From: a virus
Taxonomy: Duplodnaviria > Heunggongvirae > Uroviricota > Caudoviricetes
Length of the DNA stretch: 14,398 bases
Reading direction: 5' to 3' (one strand)
IMG/VR virus record: IMGVR_UViG_2548876961_000004
Below, piece after piece: positions 2,124 to 14,393 of the stretch. The notes beneath the pieces were generated by a model. It had not been told where the DNA came from, ran no database searches, and saw nothing but the letters and a program-made list of their open reading frames with translations. Within the stretch, counting starts at the first letter, position 1. Every line of letters starts with the position of its first letter. The translations under genes and the position numbers were made by a program.

Positions 2124-2506
2124 TTATACCCTACACGGGATAACTTAACTGATATCCCTTTTAACGGATAAAGGTATTCAAGCCTGACACATCATGCGCT
2201 GTATCGTCGCTGTATTCCCGCATTAACCATGACCGTAGCCCGACGGGGAACTCCTTCTGCGCGAGTGTGCGGGAATAATCAAAAACGATGCACACCGGGT
2301 TTTTACCGCGCTAATGATTCGCGGGTTTGTCCCTCATGCTCGCCAGTCCTGTGCGGGGGTGGAAGAAACAGGACACTCACACAGATTCTTGTGGGTCGAT
2401 GCTATTCCTTTCTGGATTATCCCGATGCCATTCATGCAAGGGCTGTATCAGACGTTCGTCATGGCTTTCAGGCTGACGGCTCCTCCCGGTGGGGTGGCCT
2501 GCCACG

Positions 2507-2518
2507 GGGCGGGAGCGT
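2507..2518. other. Candidate cosN (cohesive-end site) with variant core GGGCGGGAGCGT, flanked by ACG and CGCGG as in lambda (ACG-GGGCGGCGACCT-CGCGGG)
   Basis: About 17 of 24 positions match the recalled lambda cosN region, with divergence concentrated in the middle of the 12-nt overhang. Location about 175 bp upstream of the small terminase start matches lambda (Nu1 starts about 190 bp from the left end). Confidence 0.4.
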
Positions 2519-2690
2519 CGCGGAAAAAGGCTAGTTTTTGCATTTTTATCGGCCACCATCATCTTTGCATCTTATTGATTATTAATGGTTATTTGTTTTT
2601 TGTATGTCGAATTGAGTGTTTTTTGTTCGACGTCGAACGCGTTTTCTTAAAGTTGTTCGCACGATGCATGTTTAAAGCTCTCCGGAGGAA
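2519..2690 (+). promoter_or_regulatory. Candidate cosB-like terminase-binding region: A/T-rich, direct repeats TGTTTTTTGT (2594-2603, 2617-2626), repeated TTGTTCG motifs, and a perfect 14-bp palindrome GTTCGACGTCGAAC (2625-2638)
   Basis: Repeats read directly from sequence; position between the putative cosN and the small terminase gene is analogous to lambda cosB (R sites plus IHF site). Confidence 0.35.
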
Positions 2691-2692
2691 AT

Positions 2693-3184
2693 ATGGATCA
2701 TGAGTTGAAAAACCTGGTGCTGAATATTAATCAACTGGCGGCTTTATCTGGTCTGCACCGCCAGACTGTCGTGGCAAGACTGAAAAACATTCGTCCCGCT
2801 GGTGGACATGACAAACTCAAGCTATACCGGTTGACCGATATTCTGACTGAATTTATGGGGTTACCACCGCCGGTTGCTGAGGGCGAAATGGATCCACATG
2901 AACGCAAAGCCTGGTATCAGTCTGAACGTGAGCGTCTTAAGTTCGAACAGGAAACGGCACAACTCATTCCGGCCAGTGATGTCAGACGGGAGTTTGCCAT
3001 CTGGGCAAAAGCGGTCGTGCAGGTGCTGGAGACATTACCGGATATTCTGGAACGTGACTGTGGTCTGCAGCCTGCCGCTGTGAGCCGTGTTCAGTCCATT
3101 ATTGATGATCTGCGCGATCAGATAGCCCTGCGGGTGACCGAAGCAGGTGCGGATGATGAGGAGGAATTACAGCAGGAGGAGTAA
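2693..3184 (+). CDS. Terminase small subunit (Nu1-like function; N-terminal HTH DNA-binding domain, acidic C-terminus)
   Basis: 163-aa ORF immediately upstream of and overlapping (TAATG) the large terminase; N-terminal helix-turn-helix-like segment NINQLAALSGLHRQTVVARLKNI; GGAGG RBS 4 nt upstream; synteny cos-terS-terL. Confidence 0.8.
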   Translation: MDHELKNLVLNINQLAALSGLHRQTVVARLKNIRPAGGHDKLKLYRLTDILTEFMGLPPPVAEGEMDPHERKAWYQSERERLKFEQETAQLIPASDVRREFAIWAKAVVQVLETLPDILERDCGLQPAAVSRVQSIIDDLRDQIALRVTEAGADDEEELQQEE

Positions 3185-5286
3185 TGCTGAATCAGGAAAC
3201 CGCAAAGGCAGCACGAACCGATTCAGGTTATATCCTTCGCGCACCGAGACGAATGCGGGTTGCTGATGCCGTTGCTCAGTATATGCGGGTGCCCATGGGG
3301 GCCGGGAACTCAGTCCCGTGGGATCCGCTGGTGGCACCGTATGTTATTGAGCCGATGAACTGCCTGGCCTCGCGTGAATACGACGCAGTGATATTTGTTG
3401 GCCCGGCACGAACCGGCAAGACTATCGGCCTGATTGACGGCTGGGTGATTTACAACGTGATTTGCGATCCTGCGGATATGCTGATCATTCAGATGACGGA
3501 GGAAAAAGCCCGCGAACACTCCAAAAAACGACTCGCCAGAACGTTTCGCGTCAGCCCGGAAGTGGTCAGTCGCCTGAGTCCGAACAAAAATGACAACAAC
3601 GTTTATGACAGAACATTCCTTGCTGGCAACTACCTGAAAATCGGCTGGCCGTCAGTCAATATCATGTCCTCATCAGATTATAAATGCGTGGCGCTGACGG
3701 ATTATGACCGTTTTCCGGAAGATATTGATGGCGAGGGGGATGCCTTCTCTCTTGCCTCAAAACGTACCACCACATTTATGTCCAGTGGTATGACGCTGGT
3801 GGAGAGTTCCCCCGGCAGGGATGTGAAGGATGTGAAATGGCGACGGACTTCACCGCATGAGGCTCCACCAACCACGGGGATACTGTCGCTCTATAACCGT
3901 GGCGATCGCCGTCGCTGGTACTGGCCCTGTCCACACTGTGGTGAGTATTTTCAGCCCTGCGGCGATGTGGTTGCTGGTTTCCGTGATATTGCCGATCCCG
4001 TGCTGGCAAGTGAGGCGGCTTATATTCAGTGTCCTTCCTGTTCAGGACGGATTATGCCTGAACAAAAACGTGAGCTGAACGGACGTGGGGTCTGGTTGCG
4101 GGATGGTGAATCCATCAATGCGGATGGTAGTCGTTATGGTGATCCCCGACGCTCACGTATTGCGTCATTCTGGATGGAGGGTCCGGCAGCTGCTTACCAG
4201 ACACTCTCGCAACTCGTTTACAAACTGCTTACTGCAGAACAGGAATACGAGACAACCGGAAGTGAAGAAACACTCAAGACGGTTATCAATACCGACTGGG
4301 GATTACCTTATCTTCCCCGCGCCAGCATGGAGCAACGAAAAAGTGAACTGCTTGAGCAGCGGGCAGAGCCAGTTCCTTCCAGCAGTGTGCCGGATGGCGT
4401 TAATTTCCTTGTGGCGACAGTGGATGTGCAGGCGGGACGTCATCGCCGTTTTGTGGTTCAGGTAACGGGCTATGGCAGCCGTGGCGAACGCTGGATTATT
4501 GATCGTTACAACATCACGCAGTCATTGCGCGGTGACAGCGACGGTGAGAGCCAGCGAATTGATCCGGCCAGCTATCCGGAAGACTGGGATGTCCTGCTGA
4601 CGGATGTTTTTCATAAAAGCTGGCCGCTGGCCTCCGATCCTTCTCAACAAATGCGACTGATGGCAATGGCGGTGGACTCCGGCGGTGAAGACGGGGTCAC
4701 TGATAATGCCTATAAATTCTGGCGTCGTTGCCGTCGTGATGGCCTTGGTAAACGTATTTACCTGTTTAAGGGCGACAGCATCCGGCGCGCAAAACTGATC
4801 ACCCGTACATTCCCTGATAACACCGGACGAACGGGCCGACGGGCGCAGGCCGCAGGTGATGTGCCGCTCTGGCTTCTTCAGACGGATGCACTGAAAGACC
4901 GGGTGAATAACGCGTTATGGCGTGACTCTCCAGGTCCCGGCTATGTGCATTTCCCTGACTGGCTGGGGAGCTGGTTTTACGACGAACTGACGTATGAAGA
5001 GCGGAGTAGTGACGGGAAATGGAGTAAGCCGGGTCGCGGTGCCAACGAAGCTTTTGACCTGATGGTGTATGCCGAGGCTCTGGTCATTCTGCATGGATAC
5101 GAAAAGATCCGCTGGCCGGATGCACCGGGGTGGGCGAGCCGGGAAACCTGGCTGGAGAGTGTCCCGGACAGTACCGAACCGTCACCCTCACCGGAACCGG
5201 TATCCACGCCTGTTAAAAAACAAAAACGGAAGAAAACAGTAACTGACGATGTTAACCCCTGGCTGACTTCCGGAGGATGGTTATGA
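3184..5286 (+). CDS. Terminase large subunit, lambda gpA family (ATPase plus nuclease)
   Basis: 700-aa product with P-loop/Walker A (VGPARTGKT) and a Cys cluster (CPHCGEYF...CPSCSG) reminiscent of gpA-type terminases; CAGGAGGAG RBS; C-terminal Pro/Ser/Lys-rich tail. Confidence 0.92.
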   Translation: MLNQETAKAARTDSGYILRAPRRMRVADAVAQYMRVPMGAGNSVPWDPLVAPYVIEPMNCLASREYDAVIFVGPARTGKTIGLIDGWVIYNVICDPADMLIIQMTEEKAREHSKKRLARTFRVSPEVVSRLSPNKNDNNVYDRTFLAGNYLKIGWPSVNIMSSSDYKCVALTDYDRFPEDIDGEGDAFSLASKRTTTFMSSGMTLVESSPGRDVKDVKWRRTSPHEAPPTTGILSLYNRGDRRRWYWPCPHCGEYFQPCGDVVAGFRDIADPVLASEAAYIQCPSCSGRIMPEQKRELNGRGVWLRDGESINADGSRYGDPRRSRIASFWMEGPAAAYQTLSQLVYKLLTAEQEYETTGSEETLKTVINTDWGLPYLPRASMEQRKSELLEQRAEPVPSSSVPDGVNFLVATVDVQAGRHRRFVVQVTGYGSRGERWIIDRYNITQSLRGDSDGESQRIDPASYPEDWDVLLTDVFHKSWPLASDPSQQMRLMAMAVDSGGEDGVTDNAYKFWRRCRRDGLGKRIYLFKGDSIRRAKLITRTFPDNTGRTGRRAQAAGDVPLWLLQTDALKDRVNNALWRDSPGPGYVHFPDWLGSWFYDELTYEERSSDGKWSKPGRGANEAFDLMVYAEALVILHGYEKIRWPDAPGWASRETWLESVPDSTEPSPSPEPVSTPVKKQKRKKTVTDDVNPWLTSGGWL

Positions 5287-5495
5287 ACCAGAATGATATC
5301 GAAGCCATGATTCAGCGTTATACGGAAGCTGAAATGGCGGTGCTGGACGGAAAATCCGTCACCTTTAATGGTCAGCAGATGACCATGGAAAACTTATCTG
5401 AGATCCGGCAGGGACGGCAGGAGTGGGAGCGCCGCCTTGCGGCTCTGATTACACGACGACGGGGGCATCCCGGGTACCGGCTGGCGAGGTTCTGA
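5283..5495 (+). CDS. Head-tail joining protein, lambda gpW-like
   Basis: 70-aa product MNQNDIEAMIQRYTEAEMAVLDGKSVTFNGQQMTMENLSEIRQGRQEWERRLAALITRRRG..., same size and character as recalled lambda W (68 aa); ATG at 5283 overlaps terminase stop (ATGA) with GGAGG 6 nt upstream. An in-frame ATG at 5277 has no spacing to the RBS, so 5283 is preferred. Confidence 0.8.
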   Translation: MNQNDIEAMIQRYTEAEMAVLDGKSVTFNGQQMTMENLSEIRQGRQEWERRLAALITRRRGHPGYRLARF

Positions 5496-7004
5496 TGGCA
5501 ATTCTTGATGATGTGATTGGCGTTTTTTCACCAGGATGGAAAGCGGCAAGGCTGCGTTCCCGTGCGGTGATCCAGGCTTATGAGGCCGTAAAAACGACGC
5601 GGACACACAAAGCCCGGCGGGAAAACCGAACTGCCGACCAGTTAAGCCAGTACGGGGCCGTGTCGTTACGTGAGCAGGCCCGTTACCTTGATAACAACCA
5701 CGATCTGGTTATTGGTGTATTTGACAAGCTGGAAGAACGGGTGGTGGGGAAAAACGGGATTATTGTCGAGCCACATCCGGTATTACGCAATGGGGCCATT
5801 GCCCGTGATCTGGCAGCGGAGATACGCACCCGATGGAGTGAATGGTCTGTCAGTCCGGAAGTCACCGGGCAGTTTACCCGTCCGATGCTGGAACGTCTGA
5901 TGCTGCGTACCTGGCTGCGCGATGGTGAGGTGTTTGCCCAGATGGTTTCCGGGCGCATAAACAGCCTGACGCCTTCTGCCGGTGTTCATTTCTGGCTGGA
6001 GGCGCTCGAGCCAGACTTTATTCCCATGACCAGTGATGAGAGCAACAGGCTGAATCAGGGCGTGTTTGTTGATGACTGGGGGCGTCCCGAAAAATATCTG
6101 GTGTATAAAAGCCGTCCCGTATCCGGACGGCAGATGGAAACCAAAGAAGTGGATGCAGAGCGAATGCTGCATCTTAAATTTGTTCGCCGTCTGCACCAGA
6201 TGCGCGGGACGTCTTTGTTGTCCGGTGTGCTGATCCGCCTCAGTGCCCTGAAAGAGTATGAGGATTCTGAGCTGACTGCAGCAAGGATCGCCGCTGCTCT
6301 GGGGATGTACATCCGGAAAGGCGATGGGCAGAGCTATGAACCGGATGGTAATGGCAGCAAGGATAAGGAACGCGAGCTTACCATTCAGCCAGGCATTATT
6401 TACGACGATCTGAAACCCGGCGAAGAAATCGGAATGGTGAAGTCGGATCGCCCCAATCCTAACCTTGAAACTTTTCGTAATGGTCAGTTGCGTGCCGTGG
6501 CGGCGGGCAGTCGTCTGAATTTTTTCCAGTACAGCGCGCAACTATAACGGCACTTACAGCGCCCAGCGTCAGGAGCTGGTTGAATCCACTGATGGCTACC
6601 TGATCCTGCAGGACTGGTTTATTGGTGCCGTCACCCGCCCGATGTATCGTGCCTGGCTGAAACAGGCTGTGGCATCCGGTGTTATCAGGCTACCCCGCGA
6701 TCTTGACCGTTCTTCACTGTATACCGCGGTGTATTCCGGACCGGTGATGCCGTGGATTGACCCTGTTAAGGAGGCTGAGGCCTGGAAAATTCAGATTCGT
6801 GGTGGAGCAGCGACAGAATCAGACTGGGTACGTGCAGGTGGTCGTAATCCGGATGATGTCAAACGTCGGCGCAAGGCCGAAATTGATGAAAACCGCAAGC
6901 TGGATCTGGTATTTGATACCGATCCGGCCAGTGATAAAGGAGGCAGCAGTGCCGCAACGAAACGACAGGAGCCGCAGCACACCGACGACCAGTCCGAAGA
7001 ATAA
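5495..7004 (+). pseudogene. Portal protein (lambda gpB-like), interrupted by a frameshift at a T6 homopolymer (6520-6525): N-terminal part in frame 5495..6547, C-terminal part in the +1 frame 6519..7004
   Basis: ATG at 5495 overlaps gpW stop (TGATG). The frame stops at 6545-6547, while the adjoining +1 frame is open from 6519 and encodes a plausible continuation (...SSTARNYNGTYSAQRQELVESTDGYLILQDWFIGAVTRPMYRAWL...). Removing one T from the T6 run restores a single ORF of about 500 aa, the expected portal size. Confidence 0.85.
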
Positions 7005-7017
7005 TTCCTGGTTCAGG

Positions 7018-8976
7018 ATGCAGGCTGGTCACCAGAGTGACGCGGATATTTATATTTATGACGAGATTGGTTTCTGGGGTGTTACAGCGAAGCAGTTTAT
7101 CAGTGATCTGAATGCACTGGGCGATATCACCCACATTAATCTCAATATCAATTCACCGGGTGGCGATGTCTTTGAAGGCATCGCCATTTTTAATGCACTG
7201 AAAACACATGGTGCGTCCATTACCGTTTATGTCGACGGTGTGGCGGCGTCAATGGCGTCGGTCATTGCGATGGTGGGAAAACCGGTCATTATGCCGGAAA
7301 ACTCCTTCATGATGATTCATAAACCATTTGGCTTTACGGGCGGTGATGCGGAGGACATGCGCACCTATGCCGACCTGCTCGATAAAGTTGAGGCGGTTCT
7401 GTTACCCGCTTATGCACAGAAAACCGGGAAAACCACCGATGAAATTGCTGCCATGCTGGCGGATGAGACCTGGATGTCCGGTGCCGAATGTCTGGCACAT
7501 GGATTTGCTGATCAGGTGACGCCAGCCGTTAAGGCAATGGCATGTATTCAGTCAAAACGTACAGAGGAATTTAAAAAGATGCCGGAATCCATTCGAAACA
7601 TGATTACTCCGCCACGCAACAGTGCTCCACGCGTACAGGATGATGGACCTGCAGCCTCCCGGACGCCAGTGCAGGCAGCAGCACCTGTGGTGGATGAAAA
7701 CAGTATCCGTGCGCAGGTACTGGCAGAGCAAAAAGCGCGTGTAAACGGTATTAATGATCTGTTTGCCATGTTTGGCGGGCGTTATCAGACGCTGCAGGCT
7801 CAGTGTCTTGCCGATCCTGAATGTTCGCTGGAGCAGGCCCGCGAAAAGCTGTTGAACGAGATGGGGCGCGAGTCCACGCCATCTAATAAAAATACCCCGG
7901 CTCATATTTATGCCGGAAACGGTAATTTTGTGGGGGATGGGATCCGCCAGGCGCTGATGGCGCGTGCCGGATTTGAAAAAAACGAACGTGATAATGTCTA
8001 CAACGGGATGACCCTGCGTGAATATGCCCGTATGTCACTGACTGAACGGGGTATTGGGGTTTCCAGTTATAACCCGATGCAGATGGTCGGTGCGGCGTTC
8101 ACACACAGTACGTCTGACTTCGGTAATATTCTGCTGGATGTTGCGAACAAAGCCATTCTGCAGGGCTGGGAAGATGCCCCTGAAACCTATGAACAGTGGA
8201 CGCGGAAAGGTCAGTTGTCTGATTTTAAAATTGCCCATCGTGTGGGTATGGGGGGCTTCAGTGCTCTGCGTCAGGTGCGTGAAGGGGCGGAATATAAATA
8301 CGTCACCACCGGAGATAAACAGGCCACTATTGCACTGGCGACCTATGGCGAGCTGTTCAGTATCACCCGTCAGGCCATTATCAATGATGATCTGAATATG
8401 CTGACCGATGTCCCGATGAAACTGGGCCGTGCGGCGAAATCCACTATTGCCGATCTGGTTTATGCCATTCTGACGTCTAACCCGAAAATCTCCACAGATA
8501 ATGTAAGTCTGTTCGATAAAGCGAAACATGCAAACGTACTGGAGAGCGCTGCAATGGACGTGGCATCGCTGGATAAAGCCCGCCAGTTGATGCGCGTTCA
8601 GAAAGAGGGGGAGCGTCATCTGAATATTCGTCCTGCGTTCGTACTGGTACCGACGGCGATGGAGTCTGTTGCTAACCAGGTCATTCGCTCCTCAAGTGTC
8701 AAGGGGGCTGACATTAACGCCGGTATTATTAACCCGGTGAAAGATTTTGCGACCGTTATTGCAGAGCCTCGTCTTGATGATAACAGCCAGACCACCTTCT
8801 ACCTGGCTGCGTCAAAAGGCTCCGATACGATTGAAGTGGCTTATCTCAACGGTGTGGATACGCCATATATTGATCAGATGGAGGGCTTCAGTGTGGATGG
8901 CGTGACAACGAAAGTGCGTATTGACGCCGGTGTCGCGCCAGTTGATCACCGCGGTCTGGTGAAATGTACGGCGTAA
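7018..8976 (+). CDS. Prohead protease (ClpP/S49-like) - scaffold - major capsid protein fusion polyprotein
   Basis: 652-aa product: N-terminal ClpP-like serine protease domain (DADIYIYDEIGFWGV...NINSPGGDVFEGIAIFNAL...VDGVAASMASVIAMVG), central Ala/Pro/Gln-rich linker, C-terminal ~300-aa HK97-fold-type capsid domain. Starts 13 nt after the portal stop; start codon choice uncertain (weak RBS). Confidence 0.85.
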   Translation: MQAGHQSDADIYIYDEIGFWGVTAKQFISDLNALGDITHINLNINSPGGDVFEGIAIFNALKTHGASITVYVDGVAASMASVIAMVGKPVIMPENSFMMIHKPFGFTGGDAEDMRTYADLLDKVEAVLLPAYAQKTGKTTDEIAAMLADETWMSGAECLAHGFADQVTPAVKAMACIQSKRTEEFKKMPESIRNMITPPRNSAPRVQDDGPAASRTPVQAAAPVVDENSIRAQVLAEQKARVNGINDLFAMFGGRYQTLQAQCLADPECSLEQAREKLLNEMGRESTPSNKNTPAHIYAGNGNFVGDGIRQALMARAGFEKNERDNVYNGMTLREYARMSLTERGIGVSSYNPMQMVGAAFTHSTSDFGNILLDVANKAILQGWEDAPETYEQWTRKGQLSDFKIAHRVGMGGFSALRQVREGAEYKYVTTGDKQATIALATYGELFSITRQAIINDDLNMLTDVPMKLGRAAKSTIADLVYAILTSNPKISTDNVSLFDKAKHANVLESAAMDVASLDKARQLMRVQKEGERHLNIRPAFVLVPTAMESVANQVIRSSSVKGADINAGIINPVKDFATVIAEPRLDDNSQTTFYLAASKGSDTIEVAYLNGVDTPYIDQMEGFSVDGVTTKVRIDAGVAPVDHRGLVKCTA

Positions 8977-8996
8977 ACGTCGCAGACAACAACTCT

Positions 8997-9019
8997 GATG
9001 GCCCGTAAGGGCTTTTTTT
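8997..9019 (+). terminator. Weak rho-independent terminator after the capsid gene (GCCC-GTAA-GGGC followed by T7)
   Basis: Short GC stem at 9001-9012 followed by TTTTTTT at 9013-9019, 25 nt after the capsid stop; likely partial terminator. Confidence 0.45.
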
Positions 9020-9062
9020 GTACCTGAAATCAGCCCCTGAACGGGGCTGTGCGGAGACAGTT

Positions 9063-9386
9063 ATGGCAAAGAATTTTGTAGAAGAAGGAAAAACGGTGGC
9101 GATTGTTGCCAGTGCAGCCATCAGCAGCGGAGATCTGGTGCAGGTGGGCGATGTTTTTGCGGTGGCGCTGACCGATATTCCACAGGGTGAAACAGGCGAC
9201 GGCATGACCGAAGGTGTGTTTATGCTGCCTAAGCTGAAAACGGATGACATGAAAACGGGTAAGAAGGTTTATCTGAAGTCAGGAAAAGTTCAGCTGACTA
9301 ACAGCGGCTCTGATCCGCTGGTCGGGGTTGTCTGGGCAGATGCCGGAACCAGTGCAGAAGAAGTGCCGGTAAAACTCAATGTCTGA
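9063..9386 (+). CDS. Small head-associated protein (DUF2190-like; putative head decoration or stabilisation protein)
   Basis: 107-aa ORF with GGAGA RBS 6 nt upstream of ATG 9063, located directly after the capsid gene; Gly/Val/Ala-rich beta-type sequence. Function inferred from position and general resemblance only. Confidence 0.65.
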   Translation: MAKNFVEEGKTVAIVASAAISSGDLVQVGDVFAVALTDIPQGETGDGMTEGVFMLPKLKTDDMKTGKKVYLKSGKVQLTNSGSDPLVGVVWADAGTSAEEVPVKLNV

Positions 9387-9654
9387 TCCCTTTTCCCGGC
9401 TGGCAGCGCGTATGGATGCTATCACGGTCAGAAAGATGGGAAAGACAGCCTCGATTAATGATGTCGATATGACTGTGATCCCGGGAGAAACACTGGCAGA
9501 GCTGAATGCTCTGTCCGGACCTGCGGTCTCTCTGGTGGTGTTTTCTTCGGGATACCGCCCACGGCGCGGGGATCGCGTTGTTTATGACGGACAACAATGG
9601 ACGGTCACACGGCATGAACGCTTTAACGGTAAGCCAATGATCTTTATTGAGTAA
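9379..9654 (+). CDS. Head-tail connector / head completion protein, lambda FII-like
   Basis: 91-aa ORF overlapping the previous stop (ATGTCTGA); C-terminal motif RRGDRVVYDGQQWTVTRHE resembles recalled lambda FII (RRGDTLTIGEENFWVDRV); position before gpZ as in lambda. Confidence 0.7.
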   Translation: MSDPFSRLAARMDAITVRKMGKTASINDVDMTVIPGETLAELNALSGPAVSLVVFSSGYRPRRGDRVVYDGQQWTVTRHERFNGKPMIFIE

Positions 9655-9665
9655 AGAGGTGTGGG

Positions 9666-10244
9666 ATGAAGGGGCTTGAGAATGCCATCCGCAATCTGAA
9701 CAGCCTTGATACCCGTATGGTGCCACAGGCCAGCGCATGGGCGATAAACCGTGTGGCACAGAAAGCGGGCTCGGTTGCCACCCGGCAGGTTGCCGGGAAT
9801 ACCGTTGCGGGAGATAACCAGGTGAAAGGGATCCCCCTGAAACTGGTTCGTCAGCGTGTCCGGGTGTTTAAAGCCAGTCCGTCAGGAAAAATGACGGCCA
9901 GGATCCGCGTTAACCGGGGCAATCTGCCCGCCATTAAGCTGGGGACAGCCCGGGTCAGACTGGCCCAGCGTGGTGGAAAACTGCAGTACCGTGGCAGTGT
10001 GCTGAAGGTGGGTAAATATCTTTTCCGGGATGCGTTTATTCAGCAACTGGCGAATGGTCGCTGGCATGTGATGCGGCGTATTGATGGCAAAAATCGTTAC
10101 CCCATTGATGTGGTGAAAATCCCGCTGTCCGGACCGCTGACACAGGCATTTGAAGATGCCCGCGACCGCATCATTGCTGCGGAAATGCCGAAACAGCTGG
10201 GGTATGCACTGAAACAACAACTGAGGTTATGGCTGACCCGATGA
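9666..10244 (+). CDS. Z: Tail completion protein, lambda gpZ-like
   Basis: 192-aa product (same length as lambda Z) with strong recalled similarity (MKGLENA..., ...NGRWHVMRRIDGKNRYPIDVVKIPLSGPLTQAF..., ...LGYALKQQLR...); AGAGG RBS 6 nt upstream. Confidence 0.88.
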   Translation: MKGLENAIRNLNSLDTRMVPQASAWAINRVAQKAGSVATRQVAGNTVAGDNQVKGIPLKLVRQRVRVFKASPSGKMTARIRVNRGNLPAIKLGTARVRLAQRGGKLQYRGSVLKVGKYLFRDAFIQQLANGRWHVMRRIDGKNRYPIDVVKIPLSGPLTQAFEDARDRIIAAEMPKQLGYALKQQLRLWLTR

Positions 10245-10642
10245 ACCGACATACACAAATCCGCCAGGTCGTACTGGCACGCCTTCGGGAACAGTGTGGA
10301 GACAGCGCCACGTTTTTTGACGGGCTTCCGGCATTTGTTGATGCGCAGGAACTGCCTGCCGTGGCGGTGTGGCTGAGTGATGCTCAGTACACCGGAAAAA
10401 TGACGGATGAAGATGACTGGCAGGCTGTTCTGCATATTGCTGTCTTCATCCGGGCACAGGCACCGGATTCAGAGCTGGATATGTGGATGGAGAGCACCAT
10501 TTTCCCGGCCCTGAATGATGTATCGGCACTTTCCGGACTCATCGACACCCTGATCCCACTCGGTTTTAACTATCAACGTGATAATGAGATGGCCACCTGG
10601 GCGATGGCGGAAATCACGTACCAGATCACGTACACGAATTAA
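10241..10642 (+). CDS. U: Tail terminator protein, lambda gpU-like (alternative upstream in-frame ATG at 10229)
   Basis: Product MNRHTQIRQVVLARL...ATFFDGLPAFVDAQELPAVAVWLSDAQYTG...PDSELDMWMESTIFPALND...ITYQITY matches recalled lambda U along its length; ATG at 10241 overlaps Z stop (ATGA). Confidence 0.88.
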   Translation: MNRHTQIRQVVLARLREQCGDSATFFDGLPAFVDAQELPAVAVWLSDAQYTGKMTDEDDWQAVLHIAVFIRAQAPDSELDMWMESTIFPALNDVSALSGLIDTLIPLGFNYQRDNEMATWAMAEITYQITYTN

Positions 10643-10652
10643 GGAGGTGGTA

Positions 10653-11396
10653 ATGACCACGCCAAATCCACTGGCAAAGACGAAAGGTGCGGGGACGACG
10701 TTCTGGATGTATACCGGCAACGGCGATGCGTTTGCGAACCCTTTGTCGGACACTGACTGGCTGCGTCTTGCGATGGTGAAGGATCTGCAACCTGGCGAAA
10801 TGACCGCTGATGCAGAAGATGACACTTATCTCGATGATGAAGATGCAGACTGGAAAACGACAACCCAGGGGCAGAAATCCGTTGGTGATACTTCGGCGAC
10901 GCTGGCCTGGCGTCCGGGTGACAGCGGGCAGAAAAAACTGGTTCAGTTGTTCGACTCCGGTGAAGTCTGCGCGTTTCGTATCAAATATCCCAACGGCACT
11001 GTTGATGTTTTCCGCGGCTGGCTGAGCTCACTGGGTAAAACCATTGCCTCAAAAGACGTGATGACCCGCACAGTGAAAATCAGCGGTGTGGGGCGTCCAT
11101 ATCTGGCAGAGGAGGGCACTGAAACTGTGGGCGTTACCGGGCTGACGGTGGCACCGGCATCCGCCAGTGTCAATGTGGGAGCAACCACCACGCTGACCTT
11201 TACAGTAAAACCTGACGGAGCCAGTGACAAAGCGATCAGTGTGCATTCGACAGATCCACAGACAGCCACTGTGACCCTGAACGGACTTGTGGCCACGGTG
11301 AAAGGCGTGAAGCAGGGCAGCGTCAGCATTGTGGGCATGACCGCTGACGGGAATTTTGTGGCTGTGGCTGCGGTGACTGTCAGCGCTGCAGGTTAA
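10653..11396 (+). CDS. V: Major tail tube protein, lambda gpV-like, with C-terminal Ig-like (Big_2-type) domain
   Basis: 247-aa product MTTPNPLAKTKGAGTTFWMYTGNGDAFANPLSDTDW...YLDDEDADWKTTTQGQKSVGDTS...NGTVDVFRGWLSSLGK... closely parallels recalled lambda V (246 aa); strong AAGGAGG RBS 5 nt upstream. Confidence 0.93.
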   Translation: MTTPNPLAKTKGAGTTFWMYTGNGDAFANPLSDTDWLRLAMVKDLQPGEMTADAEDDTYLDDEDADWKTTTQGQKSVGDTSATLAWRPGDSGQKKLVQLFDSGEVCAFRIKYPNGTVDVFRGWLSSLGKTIASKDVMTRTVKISGVGRPYLAEEGTETVGVTGLTVAPASASVNVGATTTLTFTVKPDGASDKAISVHSTDPQTATVTLNGLVATVKGVKQGSVSIVGMTADGNFVAVAAVTVSAAG

Positions 11397-11416
11397 CAGG
11401 ACGATACTCATCATTT

Positions 11417-11440
11417 GCCCCGGTTATCCGGGGCTTTTTT
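11417..11440 (+). terminator. Rho-independent terminator between V and G (GCCCCGG-TTAT-CCGGGGC followed by T6)
   Basis: Perfect 7-bp GC-rich stem at 11417-11423 and 11428-11434, then TTTTTT at 11435-11440. Confidence 0.55.
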
Positions 11441-11456
11441 GCAGGTGGAGAACATG

Positions 11457-11843
11457 ATGTTTCTGAAACAGGGCACGTTTAATTATGAAAAGCAGTCCGT
11501 GGTGCTCAGTGAGCTGTCCGGGCTGCAGAGAATTGAATATCTGGCGTTTGTTCAGCAGCGAACGGCAAAGTTTGATGCCGAAGAGGGAGAACTGCCGGAG
11601 GCTGAACGACAGATTGCTTTTCTGCGGATGGGGATGGATATCAATGCCTGGCTGGTTTCCCGCTCACTGTGGAATGCGGAACAGTCTCAGGATGTTGAGA
11701 CGCTTTGCGCATCCGTTATTACAACATGGTCGTATGATGCCCTGGGAGCGGGGGCGGAGATGGTTCTGTCGCTGAGCGGTATGGGAGCCATTGAGAATGC
11801 CGGGGATTTGGAGCATGAGGTGCTGACGCCGGAAAAGTCCTGA
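11457..11843 (+). CDS. G: Tail assembly chaperone, lambda gpG-like (alternative start ATG 11454)
   Basis: Product MFLKQGTFNYEKQSVVLSELSGLQRIEYLAF... parallels recalled lambda G (MFLKTESFEHNGVTVTLSELSALQRIEHLAL...); GGTGGAG RBS 6 nt upstream. Confidence 0.85.
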   Translation: MFLKQGTFNYEKQSVVLSELSGLQRIEYLAFVQQRTAKFDAEEGELPEAERQIAFLRMGMDINAWLVSRSLWNAEQSQDVETLCASVITTWSYDALGAGAEMVLSLSGMGAIENAGDLEHEVLTPEKS

Positions 11844-12181
11844 CGCGGGAAATGCAGTTTGTCATGCGGCTTGCCCGGGAGTTCCGGCGGGCAGACTGGC
11901 GGCGGATGCTGTCGGAAATGTCGGCCACTGAGCTTGGTGAGTGGGGCGATTATTTCCGGATGCAGAGCTTCAGTGATGTGTGGATGGATGCGCAGTTTGC
12001 CTCGCTGAAGGCATTGATCGTGAGAATGGTGTCCGGTAGCAGTGATGCTGCGGTGGCTGATTTCAGCCTTTTACCGGAAGAGAACGGGATACCGGAGCGA
12101 ACGGACGAAGAACTGATGCATCTTGGGGAAGGTATTTCCGGAGGTGTGCGTTATGGACCAGATAGCCAACCTGGTCATTGA
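11457..12181 (+). CDS. T: Tail assembly chaperone G-T fusion produced by -1 programmed ribosomal frameshift near the end of G (shift window 11819-11843; likely at GGAAAAG 11831-11837); T-specific part 11838..12181
   Basis: The -1 frame relative to G is open from 11819 and runs to TGA 12179-12181, encoding ...VLTREMQFVMRLAREFRRADWRRMLSEMSATELGEWGDYFRMQSF...; the arrangement is the conserved G/G-T frameshift of lambdoid tail operons. Confidence 0.7.
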
Positions 12182-14393
12182 TTTGGGGATTGATGCGGCA
12201 GAGTTTAAAAATGAAATTCCCCGTATCAAAAACCTTCTGAATGGTGCAGCCAGCGATGCAGAACGGTCTTCTGCCCGTATGCAGCGTTTTATGGAGCGTC
12301 AGACTCAGGCCGCCCGGCAGACAATGCAGGCGGCTTCTTCGGCTGCAACAGCCGCATCCGTCCATGCGCAGACGGTGGAGAAGAGCGCACAGGCTCATGA
12401 ACGCATGGCCCGCGAGGTGGAGCAAACCCGCCAGCGTATGGAGGCACTGAGCCAGAAAATGCGCGAGGAACAGGCGCAGGCCATGGCTCTGGCGGAGGCT
12501 CAGGATAAAGCGGCTGCTGCGTTTTATCGTCAGATTGACAGTGTGAAACAGGCCGGTGCGGGGCTGCAGGAATTACAGCGTATTCAGCAACAGATCCGAC
12601 AGGCCAGAAACAGTGGCGGGATTGGTCAGCAGGATTATCTGGCGCTGATTTCTGAGGTTACGGCGAAAACCCGTGTTCTTACACAGGCTGAGGAAGAGGC
12701 TACCCGACAGAAAGTGGCGTTTATCCGTCAGCTTAAAGAGCAGGCAACCCGCCAGAATCTTTCTTCTTCTGAGTTGCTTCGTGCTAAGGCTGCCCAGCTG
12801 GGGGTAAGCAGTGCTGCAGAAGTGTATATCCGCAAAATGGAGCAGGCAGGAAAAGCCACGCATTCGCTGGGTCTGAAAAGTGCAGCAGCCCGTCAGGAGA
12901 TAGGCGTTCTGATAGGTGAACTGGCCCGCGGCAATTTAGGTGCGCTGAGGGGATCCGGAATAACGCTGGCTAACCGTGCCGGGTGGATAGACACACTGAT
13001 GTCACCGAAAGGCATGATGCCAGGAGCGGTTATTGGCGGTATTGCCGCGGCTGTCTATGGTCTGGGTAAAGCCTGGTATGACGGTCAGAAGGAGGGGGAA
13101 GAATTTAACCGCCAGCTGTCGCTGACGGGGCATTATGCCGGAGTCACTGCCGGGCAGCTGTGGACGCTCAGTCGTGCTATTTCCGGGAATGGTATCACGC
13201 AACATGCTGCAGCCGGTGCGCTGGCTCAGGTGGTGGGGAGTGGTGCATTTCGTGGAAACGATATCGGTATGGTGGCGAGAGCTGCCGCACAGATGGAGCG
13301 ATCGGTTGGCCAGTCGGTCAGCGATACCATAAATCAGTTTAAGCGGCTGAAGGATGATCCTGTAAATGCCGCGAAGGCTCTGGACAATGAGCTGCATTTT
13401 CTTACTGCCACTCAGCTTGAGCAGATACGCGTCCTTGGGGAGCAGGGGCGGTCCAGTGATGCTGCACGGATAGCCATGTCTGCACTGGCAGAGGAAACCG
13501 GTCGGCGTACTGCGGATATTGATAATAACCTCAATGCGCTTGGCAGTACGCTGAAGTATCTGTCTGATTTGTGGAGTCGTTTCTGGGATGCGGCCATGAA
13601 TATTGGTCGTGAAGACTCGCTGGATGAACAGATTGCCGCTTTACAGGAGAAAGTGTCGCGGGCGAAAAGACTCCCCTGGACGGCATCATCTTCTCAGGTT
13701 GAATACGATCAGCAGCGTCTTAACGATCTTCAGGAGAAAAAACGCCAGAAGGATTTGCAGGATGCAAAAGAGCAGGCAGAGCGGAATTATCAGGAGCAAC
13801 AGAAACGCCGTAATGCTGAAAATGCTGCACTGAACCGGATGAATGAAACGGAAGCAGCACGACATCAGCGTGAAATAGCGCGTATTAATGCCATGCAGTA
13901 CGCCGATCAGGCTGTCAGGGATGCGGCGATACAACGTGAAAATGAACGTTACGAGAAAGCCCTGGCATCCGGTAAGAAAAAAACACGCGAAACCCGTAAT
14001 GATGAGGCCACCCGGTTATTGCTGCAGTACAGTCAGCAACAGGCACAGGTGGAAGGACAGATTGCTGCTGCCAGACAGTCAGCAGGCATTGCCACGGAAA
14101 GGATGACAGAAGCGCGTAAACAGCTTCTGGCTCTGCAGCAGCGCATCAGCGACCTGGACGGGAAAAAACTGACGGCAGATGAAAAGAGTGTGCTGGCCCG
14201 TAAAGATGAACTGATTCAGGCACTGACGCTGCTGGATGTAAAACAGCAGGAGCTTCAGAAACAGACGGCACTCAACGAGCTGAAGAAAAAAACAATTCAG
14301 CTGACCAGTCAACTGGCTGAAGAAGAGCGCGCTCAGCGTCAGCATGAACCGCCCCGGGAATCCTGGAGACTAAACTCCCTGAGAAAGAGGTAA
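12153..14393 (+). CDS. H: Tail tape measure protein, lambda gpH-like (N-terminal ~745 aa; ORF stops at TAA 14391-14393, 5 nt before the window end)
   Basis: ATG 12153 with GGAGG RBS 8 nt upstream, overlapping the end of T; N-terminus MDQIANLVIDLGIDAAEFKNE... parallels recalled lambda H (MAEPVGDLVVDLSLDAARFDEQ...); long Ala/Gln/Arg-rich coiled-coil region typical of tape measure proteins. Confidence 0.88.
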   Translation: MDQIANLVIDLGIDAAEFKNEIPRIKNLLNGAASDAERSSARMQRFMERQTQAARQTMQAASSAATAASVHAQTVEKSAQAHERMAREVEQTRQRMEALSQKMREEQAQAMALAEAQDKAAAAFYRQIDSVKQAGAGLQELQRIQQQIRQARNSGGIGQQDYLALISEVTAKTRVLTQAEEEATRQKVAFIRQLKEQATRQNLSSSELLRAKAAQLGVSSAAEVYIRKMEQAGKATHSLGLKSAAARQEIGVLIGELARGNLGALRGSGITLANRAGWIDTLMSPKGMMPGAVIGGIAAAVYGLGKAWYDGQKEGEEFNRQLSLTGHYAGVTAGQLWTLSRAISGNGITQHAAAGALAQVVGSGAFRGNDIGMVARAAAQMERSVGQSVSDTINQFKRLKDDPVNAAKALDNELHFLTATQLEQIRVLGEQGRSSDAARIAMSALAEETGRRTADIDNNLNALGSTLKYLSDLWSRFWDAAMNIGREDSLDEQIAALQEKVSRAKRLPWTASSSQVEYDQQRLNDLQEKKRQKDLQDAKEQAERNYQEQQKRRNAENAALNRMNETEAARHQREIARINAMQYADQAVRDAAIQRENERYEKALASGKKKTRETRNDEATRLLLQYSQQQAQVEGQIAAARQSAGIATERMTEARKQLLALQQRISDLDGKKLTADEKSVLARKDELIQALTLLDVKQQELQKQTALNELKKKTIQLTSQLAEEERAQRQHEPPRESWRLNSLRKR

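Follow-up and report, generated by a model that had tools for sequence, protein, structure and literature searches.

A ClpP-like prohead protease/major capsid protein fusion gene of a lambdoid prophage and its probable internal translation start

In phage lambda, an in-frame start annotated inside the protease gene (C) yields the scaffold (Nu3), which shares the C-terminal assembly domain of the protease. The lambda protease is of the S49 type, the major capsid protein is encoded by a separate gene (E), and the decoration protein gene (D) lies between Nu3 and E. In HK97, the capsid protein gp5 carries a helical N-terminal extension, the delta domain, ahead of its HK97-fold portion, and this extension is removed by the prohead protease. 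The HK97 gp4 protease is likewise the product of a separate gene and enters the prohead by means of a C-terminal targeting tail, and covalent cross-links are used instead of a decoration protein. Gifsy-2 possesses a 'tripartite capsid gene' (STM1033 / STM1034.3n) that encodes a ClpP-like protease, a central domain of ~100-200 residues and a capsid protein. The central ~200 residues of its product reportedly may serve as a scaffold between the N-terminal ClpP-like protease and the C-terminal capsid protein, and models of its T=7 capsids are said to have drawn on lambda gpD and the capsid protein of HK97. Here we describe a gene of the Gifsy-2 architecture in a 14,398-nucleotide (nt) stretch of phage DNA (IMG/VR virus record IMGVR_UViG_2548876961_000004), hereafter called the window. 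The portal, fusion and decoration genes and the elements mapped within and between them lie on the + strand.

The gene encodes the head shell of an E. coli O157:H7 lambdoid prophage of the Gifsy-2/mEp460 type, and it belongs to a curated family of ClpP-like protease/capsid fusions. Positions 7018-8976 give a stop-free translation of 652 amino acids (aa) followed by TAA, and an earlier note, made from the sequence without database searches, had read this segment as a single open reading frame (ORF) that joins a ClpP-like protease to a capsid protein. Pfam searches with the 652-aa reading bear this out, with CLP_protease at aa 23-168 (E = 5e-36) in the N-terminal half and Phage_capsid_4 at aa 355-649 (E = 1.5e-54) in the C-terminal half; PHROG 133 covers the protein end to end. 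The note had called the protease 'ClpP/S49-like', and only the ClpP part of that label can be kept, since models of the S49 type (lambda gpC, SppA) were not the best match. The predicted protein is 70% identical and 84% similar to that of Gifsy-2 (L002:22471-24561) over 669 residues. The two loci share the order TerS, TerL, small ORF, overlapping portal gene, fusion gene, decoration gene, Z, U, V, G and T, and they differ in the sequence and length of the linker between the domains, in annotated protein length (696 aa in Gifsy-2, 675 in the window) and in the portal gene, which is frameshifted in the window.

While analyzing the 5′ end of the ORF, we found that its frame is open further upstream, back to 6757, and that the gene most likely starts at GTG 6949; the ATG at 7018, taken as the start in the earlier note, is probably wrong. 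GTG 6949 is preceded at 5 nt by a Shine-Dalgarno (SD) sequence (AAGGAGG; 6937-6943) that lies within the 3′ end of the portal gene, and it is the start used in RefSeq (WP_001136595.1; 675 aa). The 675-aa form is also found in most protein clusters. For comparison, 78 full-length relatives were aligned and dereplicated at 90% identity to 57 sequences. The ATG at 7018 (Met24) was rejected as the start: it lacks an SD, the residue is Met in just 31 of the 57 relatives, and the conserved Trp21 and Phe22 lie upstream of it. Most relatives have an SD-bearing start 19-36 codons before Trp21 (GTG in Enterobacteriaceae, ATG elsewhere), and stand-alone ClpP-type prohead proteases align from Ser20/Trp21 onward. 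One such protease, of family NF045542 and encoded by Vibrio phage K272, is 45% identical over 205 aa that include the region upstream of ATG 7018. It follows the portal gene, as does the fusion gene in the window, but has its own stop codon and is succeeded by a separate 391-aa capsid gene of PF05065 (HK97-like) rather than PF25209. The full-length coding sequence (6949-8976; 675 aa, 73.5 kDa) agrees with the NF045540 match described below, the RefSeq coding sequence and the Gifsy-2 identity, and its start at 6949 produces a 56-nt overlap with the portal gene. Several phage records begin the gene at ATG 7018 and thereby lose conserved residues.

The domain organization was examined using these relatives, a broad alignment of 110 representatives (30-95% identity) and an AlphaFold2 model built from the latter (mean predicted local distance difference test score, pLDDT, 87.3). 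Residue numbers refer to the 675-aa reading except where the 652-aa reading is named. The ClpP-like (S14) prohead protease domain (aa 32-190; 7042-7518) is modelled within a folded region of about aa 20-220. Its predicted catalytic Ser101 (codon 7249-7251; GVAASMAS) aligns with the active-site Ser motif of ClpP and is Ser in 57/57 relatives, and its predicted catalytic His124 (codon 7318-7320; MMIHKP) aligns with MIHQP of ClpP and is His in 57/57 relatives and in 110/110 sequences of the broad alignment. Residue 173 is acidic in all but one of the 57. Downstream lies a flexible linker rich in Pro, Ala, Thr and Gln (aa 221-249; 7609-7695), hypervariable in sequence and length, with insertions and deletions that reach 15 residues between close relatives and with aa 221-245 predicted to be disordered (pLDDT < 50); a low-complexity linker had been noted here before. 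Three helices follow (aa 250-273, 280-288 and 294-308; pLDDT 90-97), forming a scaffold-like segment that resembles a delta domain (aa 250-308; 7696-7872). A scaffolding role may be assigned to this segment by its position and by analogy with Gifsy-2, HK97 and lambda. After a short, uncertain stretch (aa 312-325), the model ends in the large HK97-fold major capsid protein region (aa 327-675; 7927-8973) with a long spine helix at aa 483-510. In a profile search, the C-terminal part matched solved capsid proteins, namely 9jod (E = 1.6e-11) and the 'Mu GpT domain' proteins 8rkc/8rkx (E = 2.3e-11). One frame thus encodes four parts in succession: a ClpP-fold serine protease, a disordered linker, a domain of three helices and a capsid protein of the HK97 fold. 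We regard the identity and architecture of the gene as practically certain.

The protein matches NCBIfam model NF045540 with 980.9 bits (cut-off 475) over model positions 2-651 of 652, and the Gifsy-2 protein scores similarly far above the cut-off (949.6 bits). This family is named 'ClpP-like prohead protease/major capsid protein fusion protein', the name that RefSeq uses for the window protein, and the following of its traits are present: an N-terminal ClpP-fold protease with Ser and His, a C-terminal HK97-fold capsid domain on the same polypeptide, and a head-module position between the portal and decoration genes. Against NF045541, a second type of fusion, the protein scored 399.3 bits, below the cut-off of 525, and only aa 220-672 matched. 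Members of that family (e.g., Ralstonia phage YO178_1) have a linker, scaffold and capsid part homologous to those of the window protein but an N-terminal domain of ~200 residues that is unrelated in sequence to its ClpP-like domain; this domain (L005:3329-4000; IMG/VR loci L087-L115) has no Pfam match but is called a prohead protease by NCBI. The ORF was undivided in 78 of 84 related loci compared (45-99% identity), and the same continuous ORF occurred in 80 phage records and in all of the 80 best loci (45-99% identity) among at least 570 matching stretches in a species-representative genome collection, the loci coming from Enterobacterales, Pseudomonas, Pasteurellaceae, Shewanella, Aeromonas and others. 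When the capsid part was used as query, the best 150 of 10,641 matching cluster representatives were mostly proteins of 620-790 aa with the match in their last ~340 residues. Complete E. coli genomes matched the portal and fusion region in 2117 of 5426 cases (~40%). The earlier remark that such fusions occur in prophage head modules is thus well founded, and with a curated name and an experimentally studied orthologue the protease-capsid fusion is already known and is nothing new; what the present analysis adds is a revised start codon and, from the comparison of relatives, evidence of a nested start inside the gene. Phage records name the gene variously as protease, scaffold, Nu3, preconnector or major capsid protein. 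In addition, database singletons of 1080-1159 aa join portal, protease and capsid protein. These switch from the portal frame to that of the fusion gene at differing points (~6766-6953) in the region where the two frames are both open in the window (6757-7004), which points to independent indels or sequencing errors rather than a programmed event, and the 1159-aa proteins were therefore not accepted as a real triple fusion.

A search for an internal ribosome binding site with a start codon at about 7550-7900 had been suggested, and a suitable pair was found at the boundary between protease and linker, where an SD-like GAGGA (7564-7568) occurs 10 nt before the in-frame ATG at 7579 (Met211). No other in-frame start codon inside the gene has an SD-like motif nearby. 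The proposed nested ORF (7579-8976) would encode a 465-aa, 50.6-kDa product consisting of linker, scaffold-like domain and capsid protein without the protease. Met211 is kept in 77 of the 78 full-length relatives and Pro212 in all 78, and the Gifsy-2 gene has the same Met-Pro with an upstream GAGGAG. An SD-like motif was present 4-11 nt upstream of the Met211 ATG in 55 of 56 dereplicated relatives, and at ten other conserved internal Met codons in 0-6%. The sole sequence lacking the Met, from Motilimonas, also lacks the SD motif. At the protein level the motif differs between sequences (EE, ED, QE, KE, KD, GD, M-E-N), while its nucleotide core, RAGGA or GGAG, persists. In 51 of 51 sequences, the codon contributing the first G of this core has G as its last base, where the codon usage of each gene predicts 21.2. 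Elsewhere in the same genes, the codon before Asp or Glu ends in G in 28% (Glu), 20% (Lys) and 63% (Gln) of cases. The top three of 529 three-codon windows ranked by synonymous conservation fall at aa 203-207, no other SD-like 4-mer within the gene is conserved in ≥90% of sequences, and in 98% of sequences the mRNA near ATG 7579 has less structure than is average for the gene (mean z +1.2). Taken together, these observations make it probable that ATG 7579 is a functional internal start.

Similar sites were found outside the close relatives. Of 26 NF045541 loci, 23 have a Met at the corresponding boundary, in most cases with AAGGA or GAGGA ~7 nt upstream. In the broad alignment, Pro212 is retained in 105 of 110 sequences and a Met occupies the Met211 column in 12; an alternative Met, situated 20-40 residues into the linker and typically following KE or EE, occurs in 57. 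The DNA of three such distant members carries GAGGAG, AAGGA and GAGGA, respectively, 4-7 nt before the ATG of the alternative Met. The internal-start feature is thus general, and its exact position moves. It corresponds to the lambda C/Nu3 trait of an in-frame internal start with its own ribosome binding site inside the protease ORF, found here by comparative evidence; the Nu3 start itself, a single sequence intended as a control, has an SD-like GGGAGA 14-15 nt upstream. The earlier suggestion that internal starts might also give capsid-only products did not hold up: candidates at Met354, 362, 377 and 379 and at GTG 7930 and ATG 7957 lack an SD in the window, and 0-2% of relatives have one. 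No usable report of proteomics or of an internal start for the fusion family was found in the accessible literature, outside which the Gifsy-2 study of Effantin et al. (2010; Virology 402:355) lies.

By comparison with the family, Gifsy-2, HK97 and lambda, assembly of the subunits on the portal would yield a T=7 procapsid that holds their N-terminal parts inside, and the confined protease domains would then cut off everything N-terminal of the mature capsid protein, that is, protease, linker and scaffold. Packaging of DNA would expand the shell, which trimers of the downstream decoration protein would stabilize. On these analogies the fusion protein is very probably a self-processing polyprotein. 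Its maturation cleavage site could not be located from the sequence and is expected between aa 309 and ~330. The GAGGA at 7564-7568 and ATG 7579 would start a second, in-frame product, a protease-less scaffold-capsid precursor of 465 aa comparable to HK97 gp5 with its delta domain, and the 73.5-kDa protein would take its place among the capsid subunits and so bring in the protease, which would carry the logic of lambda C/Nu3 further. The HK97 protease differs in belonging to another family, and lambda differs in that its protease is not ClpP/S14 and in that the C-terminal part shared by the two products takes in, in the window, the whole capsid protein. If true, the internal start would explain how protease and capsid protein can be fused without loading 415 proteases per prohead, and the lambda strategy would reach the capsid protein itself. 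We consider this overall account, with a nested gene and two products, likely. Its extension to 'tripartite' genes generally, as nested genes in which a protease-less scaffold-capsid protein is the main building block and the full-length protein a minority protease carrier, the ratio being set by the GTG and the internal ATG, is somewhat favored. The recurrence of the site in two families with unrelated protease domains, together with its shifted positions in distant members, suggests that it is essential to such fusions.

Several points weigh against the two-product account. The SD and ATG of the window are 10 nt apart, toward the upper limit of common spacings; the relatives share kinship, so that their counts are not independent events; and a Met at the exact column is confined to 12 of the 110 broad-alignment sequences, the shifted sites of the distant members being known mostly by amino-acid patterns alone. 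Both the two products and the cleavage are predictions from gene sequences, and the portal frameshift described below makes function in the source strain doubtful. A natural, unfused scaffold-capsid gene starting at Met211 was sought, and none was found. Database proteins of 440-470 aa beginning with 'MP' had appeared to be such genes and were rejected: at two loci, L169 and L170, the upstream frame is open to the contig end, and a third, L171, is a frameshifted copy of the fused form in a degraded prophage. In L170, from a distant relative (positions 1-103), the contig starts inside a perfect (GGCCCC)n repeat encoding Ala-Pro, in the linker just upstream of the internal Met. Repetitive linkers of this kind probably break assemblies and so give rise to many of the ~450-aa 'MP' proteins in the databases. 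The L171 copy (L171:2357-4332; GCA_000755365.1, BBMQ01000056.1) is split into a 201-aa ClpP-like ORF and a 443-aa scaffold-capsid ORF in different frames, with SNRIKDFHNMP of the fused type still readable upstream of the second start, in what seems to be a rearranged prophage remnant.

An alternative is a single-product polyprotein, in which only the 675-aa protein is made and every subunit carries a protease and a scaffold that are removed after assembly, the Met-Pro and purine-rich motif then having some other purpose, for example in cleavage, docking or pausing of translation, or as an RNA element. The continuity of the ORF in most loci indicates that the covalent link is under selection, the 10-nt SD spacing in the window speaks for this explanation, and by a rough estimate 415 N-terminal parts of ~37 kDa would fit into a T=7 procapsid. 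Retention of Pro212 far more widely than Met211 in the broad alignment likewise implies that the motif is partly a protein feature. A role at the protein level, however, explains neither the invariant synonymous G nor why the nucleotide core is kept where the encoded residue pairs differ, and the rest of these genes under-uses SD-like codon pairs. The loss of Met and SD together in one lineage also speaks against this alternative, as do the equivalent SD and ATG pairs whose positions are shifted in the second family and in distant members, and we judge it unlikely. The earlier note had also raised the possibility of a sequencing error, and such an error, or one of assembly, might have joined adjacent protease and capsid genes. 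Frameshifts do occur in public data for this region, in the portal gene here and in the 1159-aa singletons, but the undivided ORF of the related loci and phage records shows no artefact, the species-representative stretches and the curated NCBI family agree with it, and a 100% identical ORF is present in many independently finished E. coli O157:H7 genomes; the split copy at L171 is the exception and is itself a visibly frameshifted fused form. The chance of an artificial fusion is therefore negligible.

A further explanation, compatible with the nested-gene account, is that the fusion gene is an intact gene in a dead prophage, a silent passenger unless another resident lambdoid prophage supplies a portal protein. 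The portal gene (lambda family; 5495-7004) is disrupted by a 1-nt insertion at a T-run (6520-6525) that leads to a premature stop at 6545-6547. The window reads CTGAATTTTTTCC, with six T residues after A, and mEp460 and two near-identical relatives read CTGAGTTTTTCC, with five T residues after G. As a result the portal is split into ORFs at 5423/5495-6547 and 6642-7004, over which its Pfam and PHROG matches are divided. RefSeq has two portal coding sequences, and the lesion is fixed in many complete O157:H7 genomes; the presence of the same allele in so many genomes indicates a real lesion and not a read error. The prophage is thus probably defective and unable to build heads alone, with its fusion gene intact. 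Complementation is conceivable, as each O157:H7 genome has up to six places that match the portal and fusion region. The fusion gene, on the other hand, is undamaged and 99% identical to that of the plaque-forming mEp460, cdtI and Ayreon. On balance, we lean toward the view that the gene resides in a dead prophage.

Window positions 2668-13976 align with the left arm of phage mEp460 at 98.2% identity, the DNA of 7018-8976 is 99% identical also to that of Tritos and other E. coli siphophages, and many finished O157:H7 genomes contain a prophage with 100% identity to the portal and fusion region. The genes form a lambdoid late operon consisting of holin, lysozyme, Rz, small (DUF1441) and large terminase subunits, a small ORF, portal, fusion gene, decoration (Phage_cement_2) gene and a Gifsy-2-type head-tail gene, followed by Z, U, V, G, T and the tape measure gene. 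The fusion gene occupies the late-operon position that C/Nu3 and E, D hold in lambda, and a decoration protein gene is found in both. In the window, the head decoration (cement) protein gene (9063-9386; 107 aa; Phage_cement_2, E = 1.4e-20) has an ATG start and a GGAGA motif and encodes the partner of this kind of capsid protein; Gifsy-2, mEp460 and distant relatives have the same gene next after their fusion gene. Gifsy-2 is listed as one of the phages whose decoration protein forms trimers at the 3-fold axes (PMC8538268). Directly 3′ of the fusion gene is a terminator-like hairpin, GGCCCGTAAGGGC, with a run of seven T residues (9000-9019); mEp460 has an annotated rho-independent terminator at this position. 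A second hairpin, CAGCCCCTGAACGGGGCTG, lies just upstream of the SD of the decoration gene, the two together spanning 9000-9049. A terminator in mid-operon might keep the capsid-gene message higher than that of the downstream genes, or might itself be subject to Q antitermination.

Elsewhere in the window, only one part of the region homologous to mEp460 has many mismatches and several indels, namely the beginning of the small terminase gene (DUF1441 family; 2668-2811), with 62 differences in the 2500-3000 bin and 1-16 in other bins; this points to a mosaic junction near cos. G and T, the genes for the tail assembly chaperones (11415-12181), are placed as for a lambda-type programmed -1 frameshift that would yield a G-T fusion.

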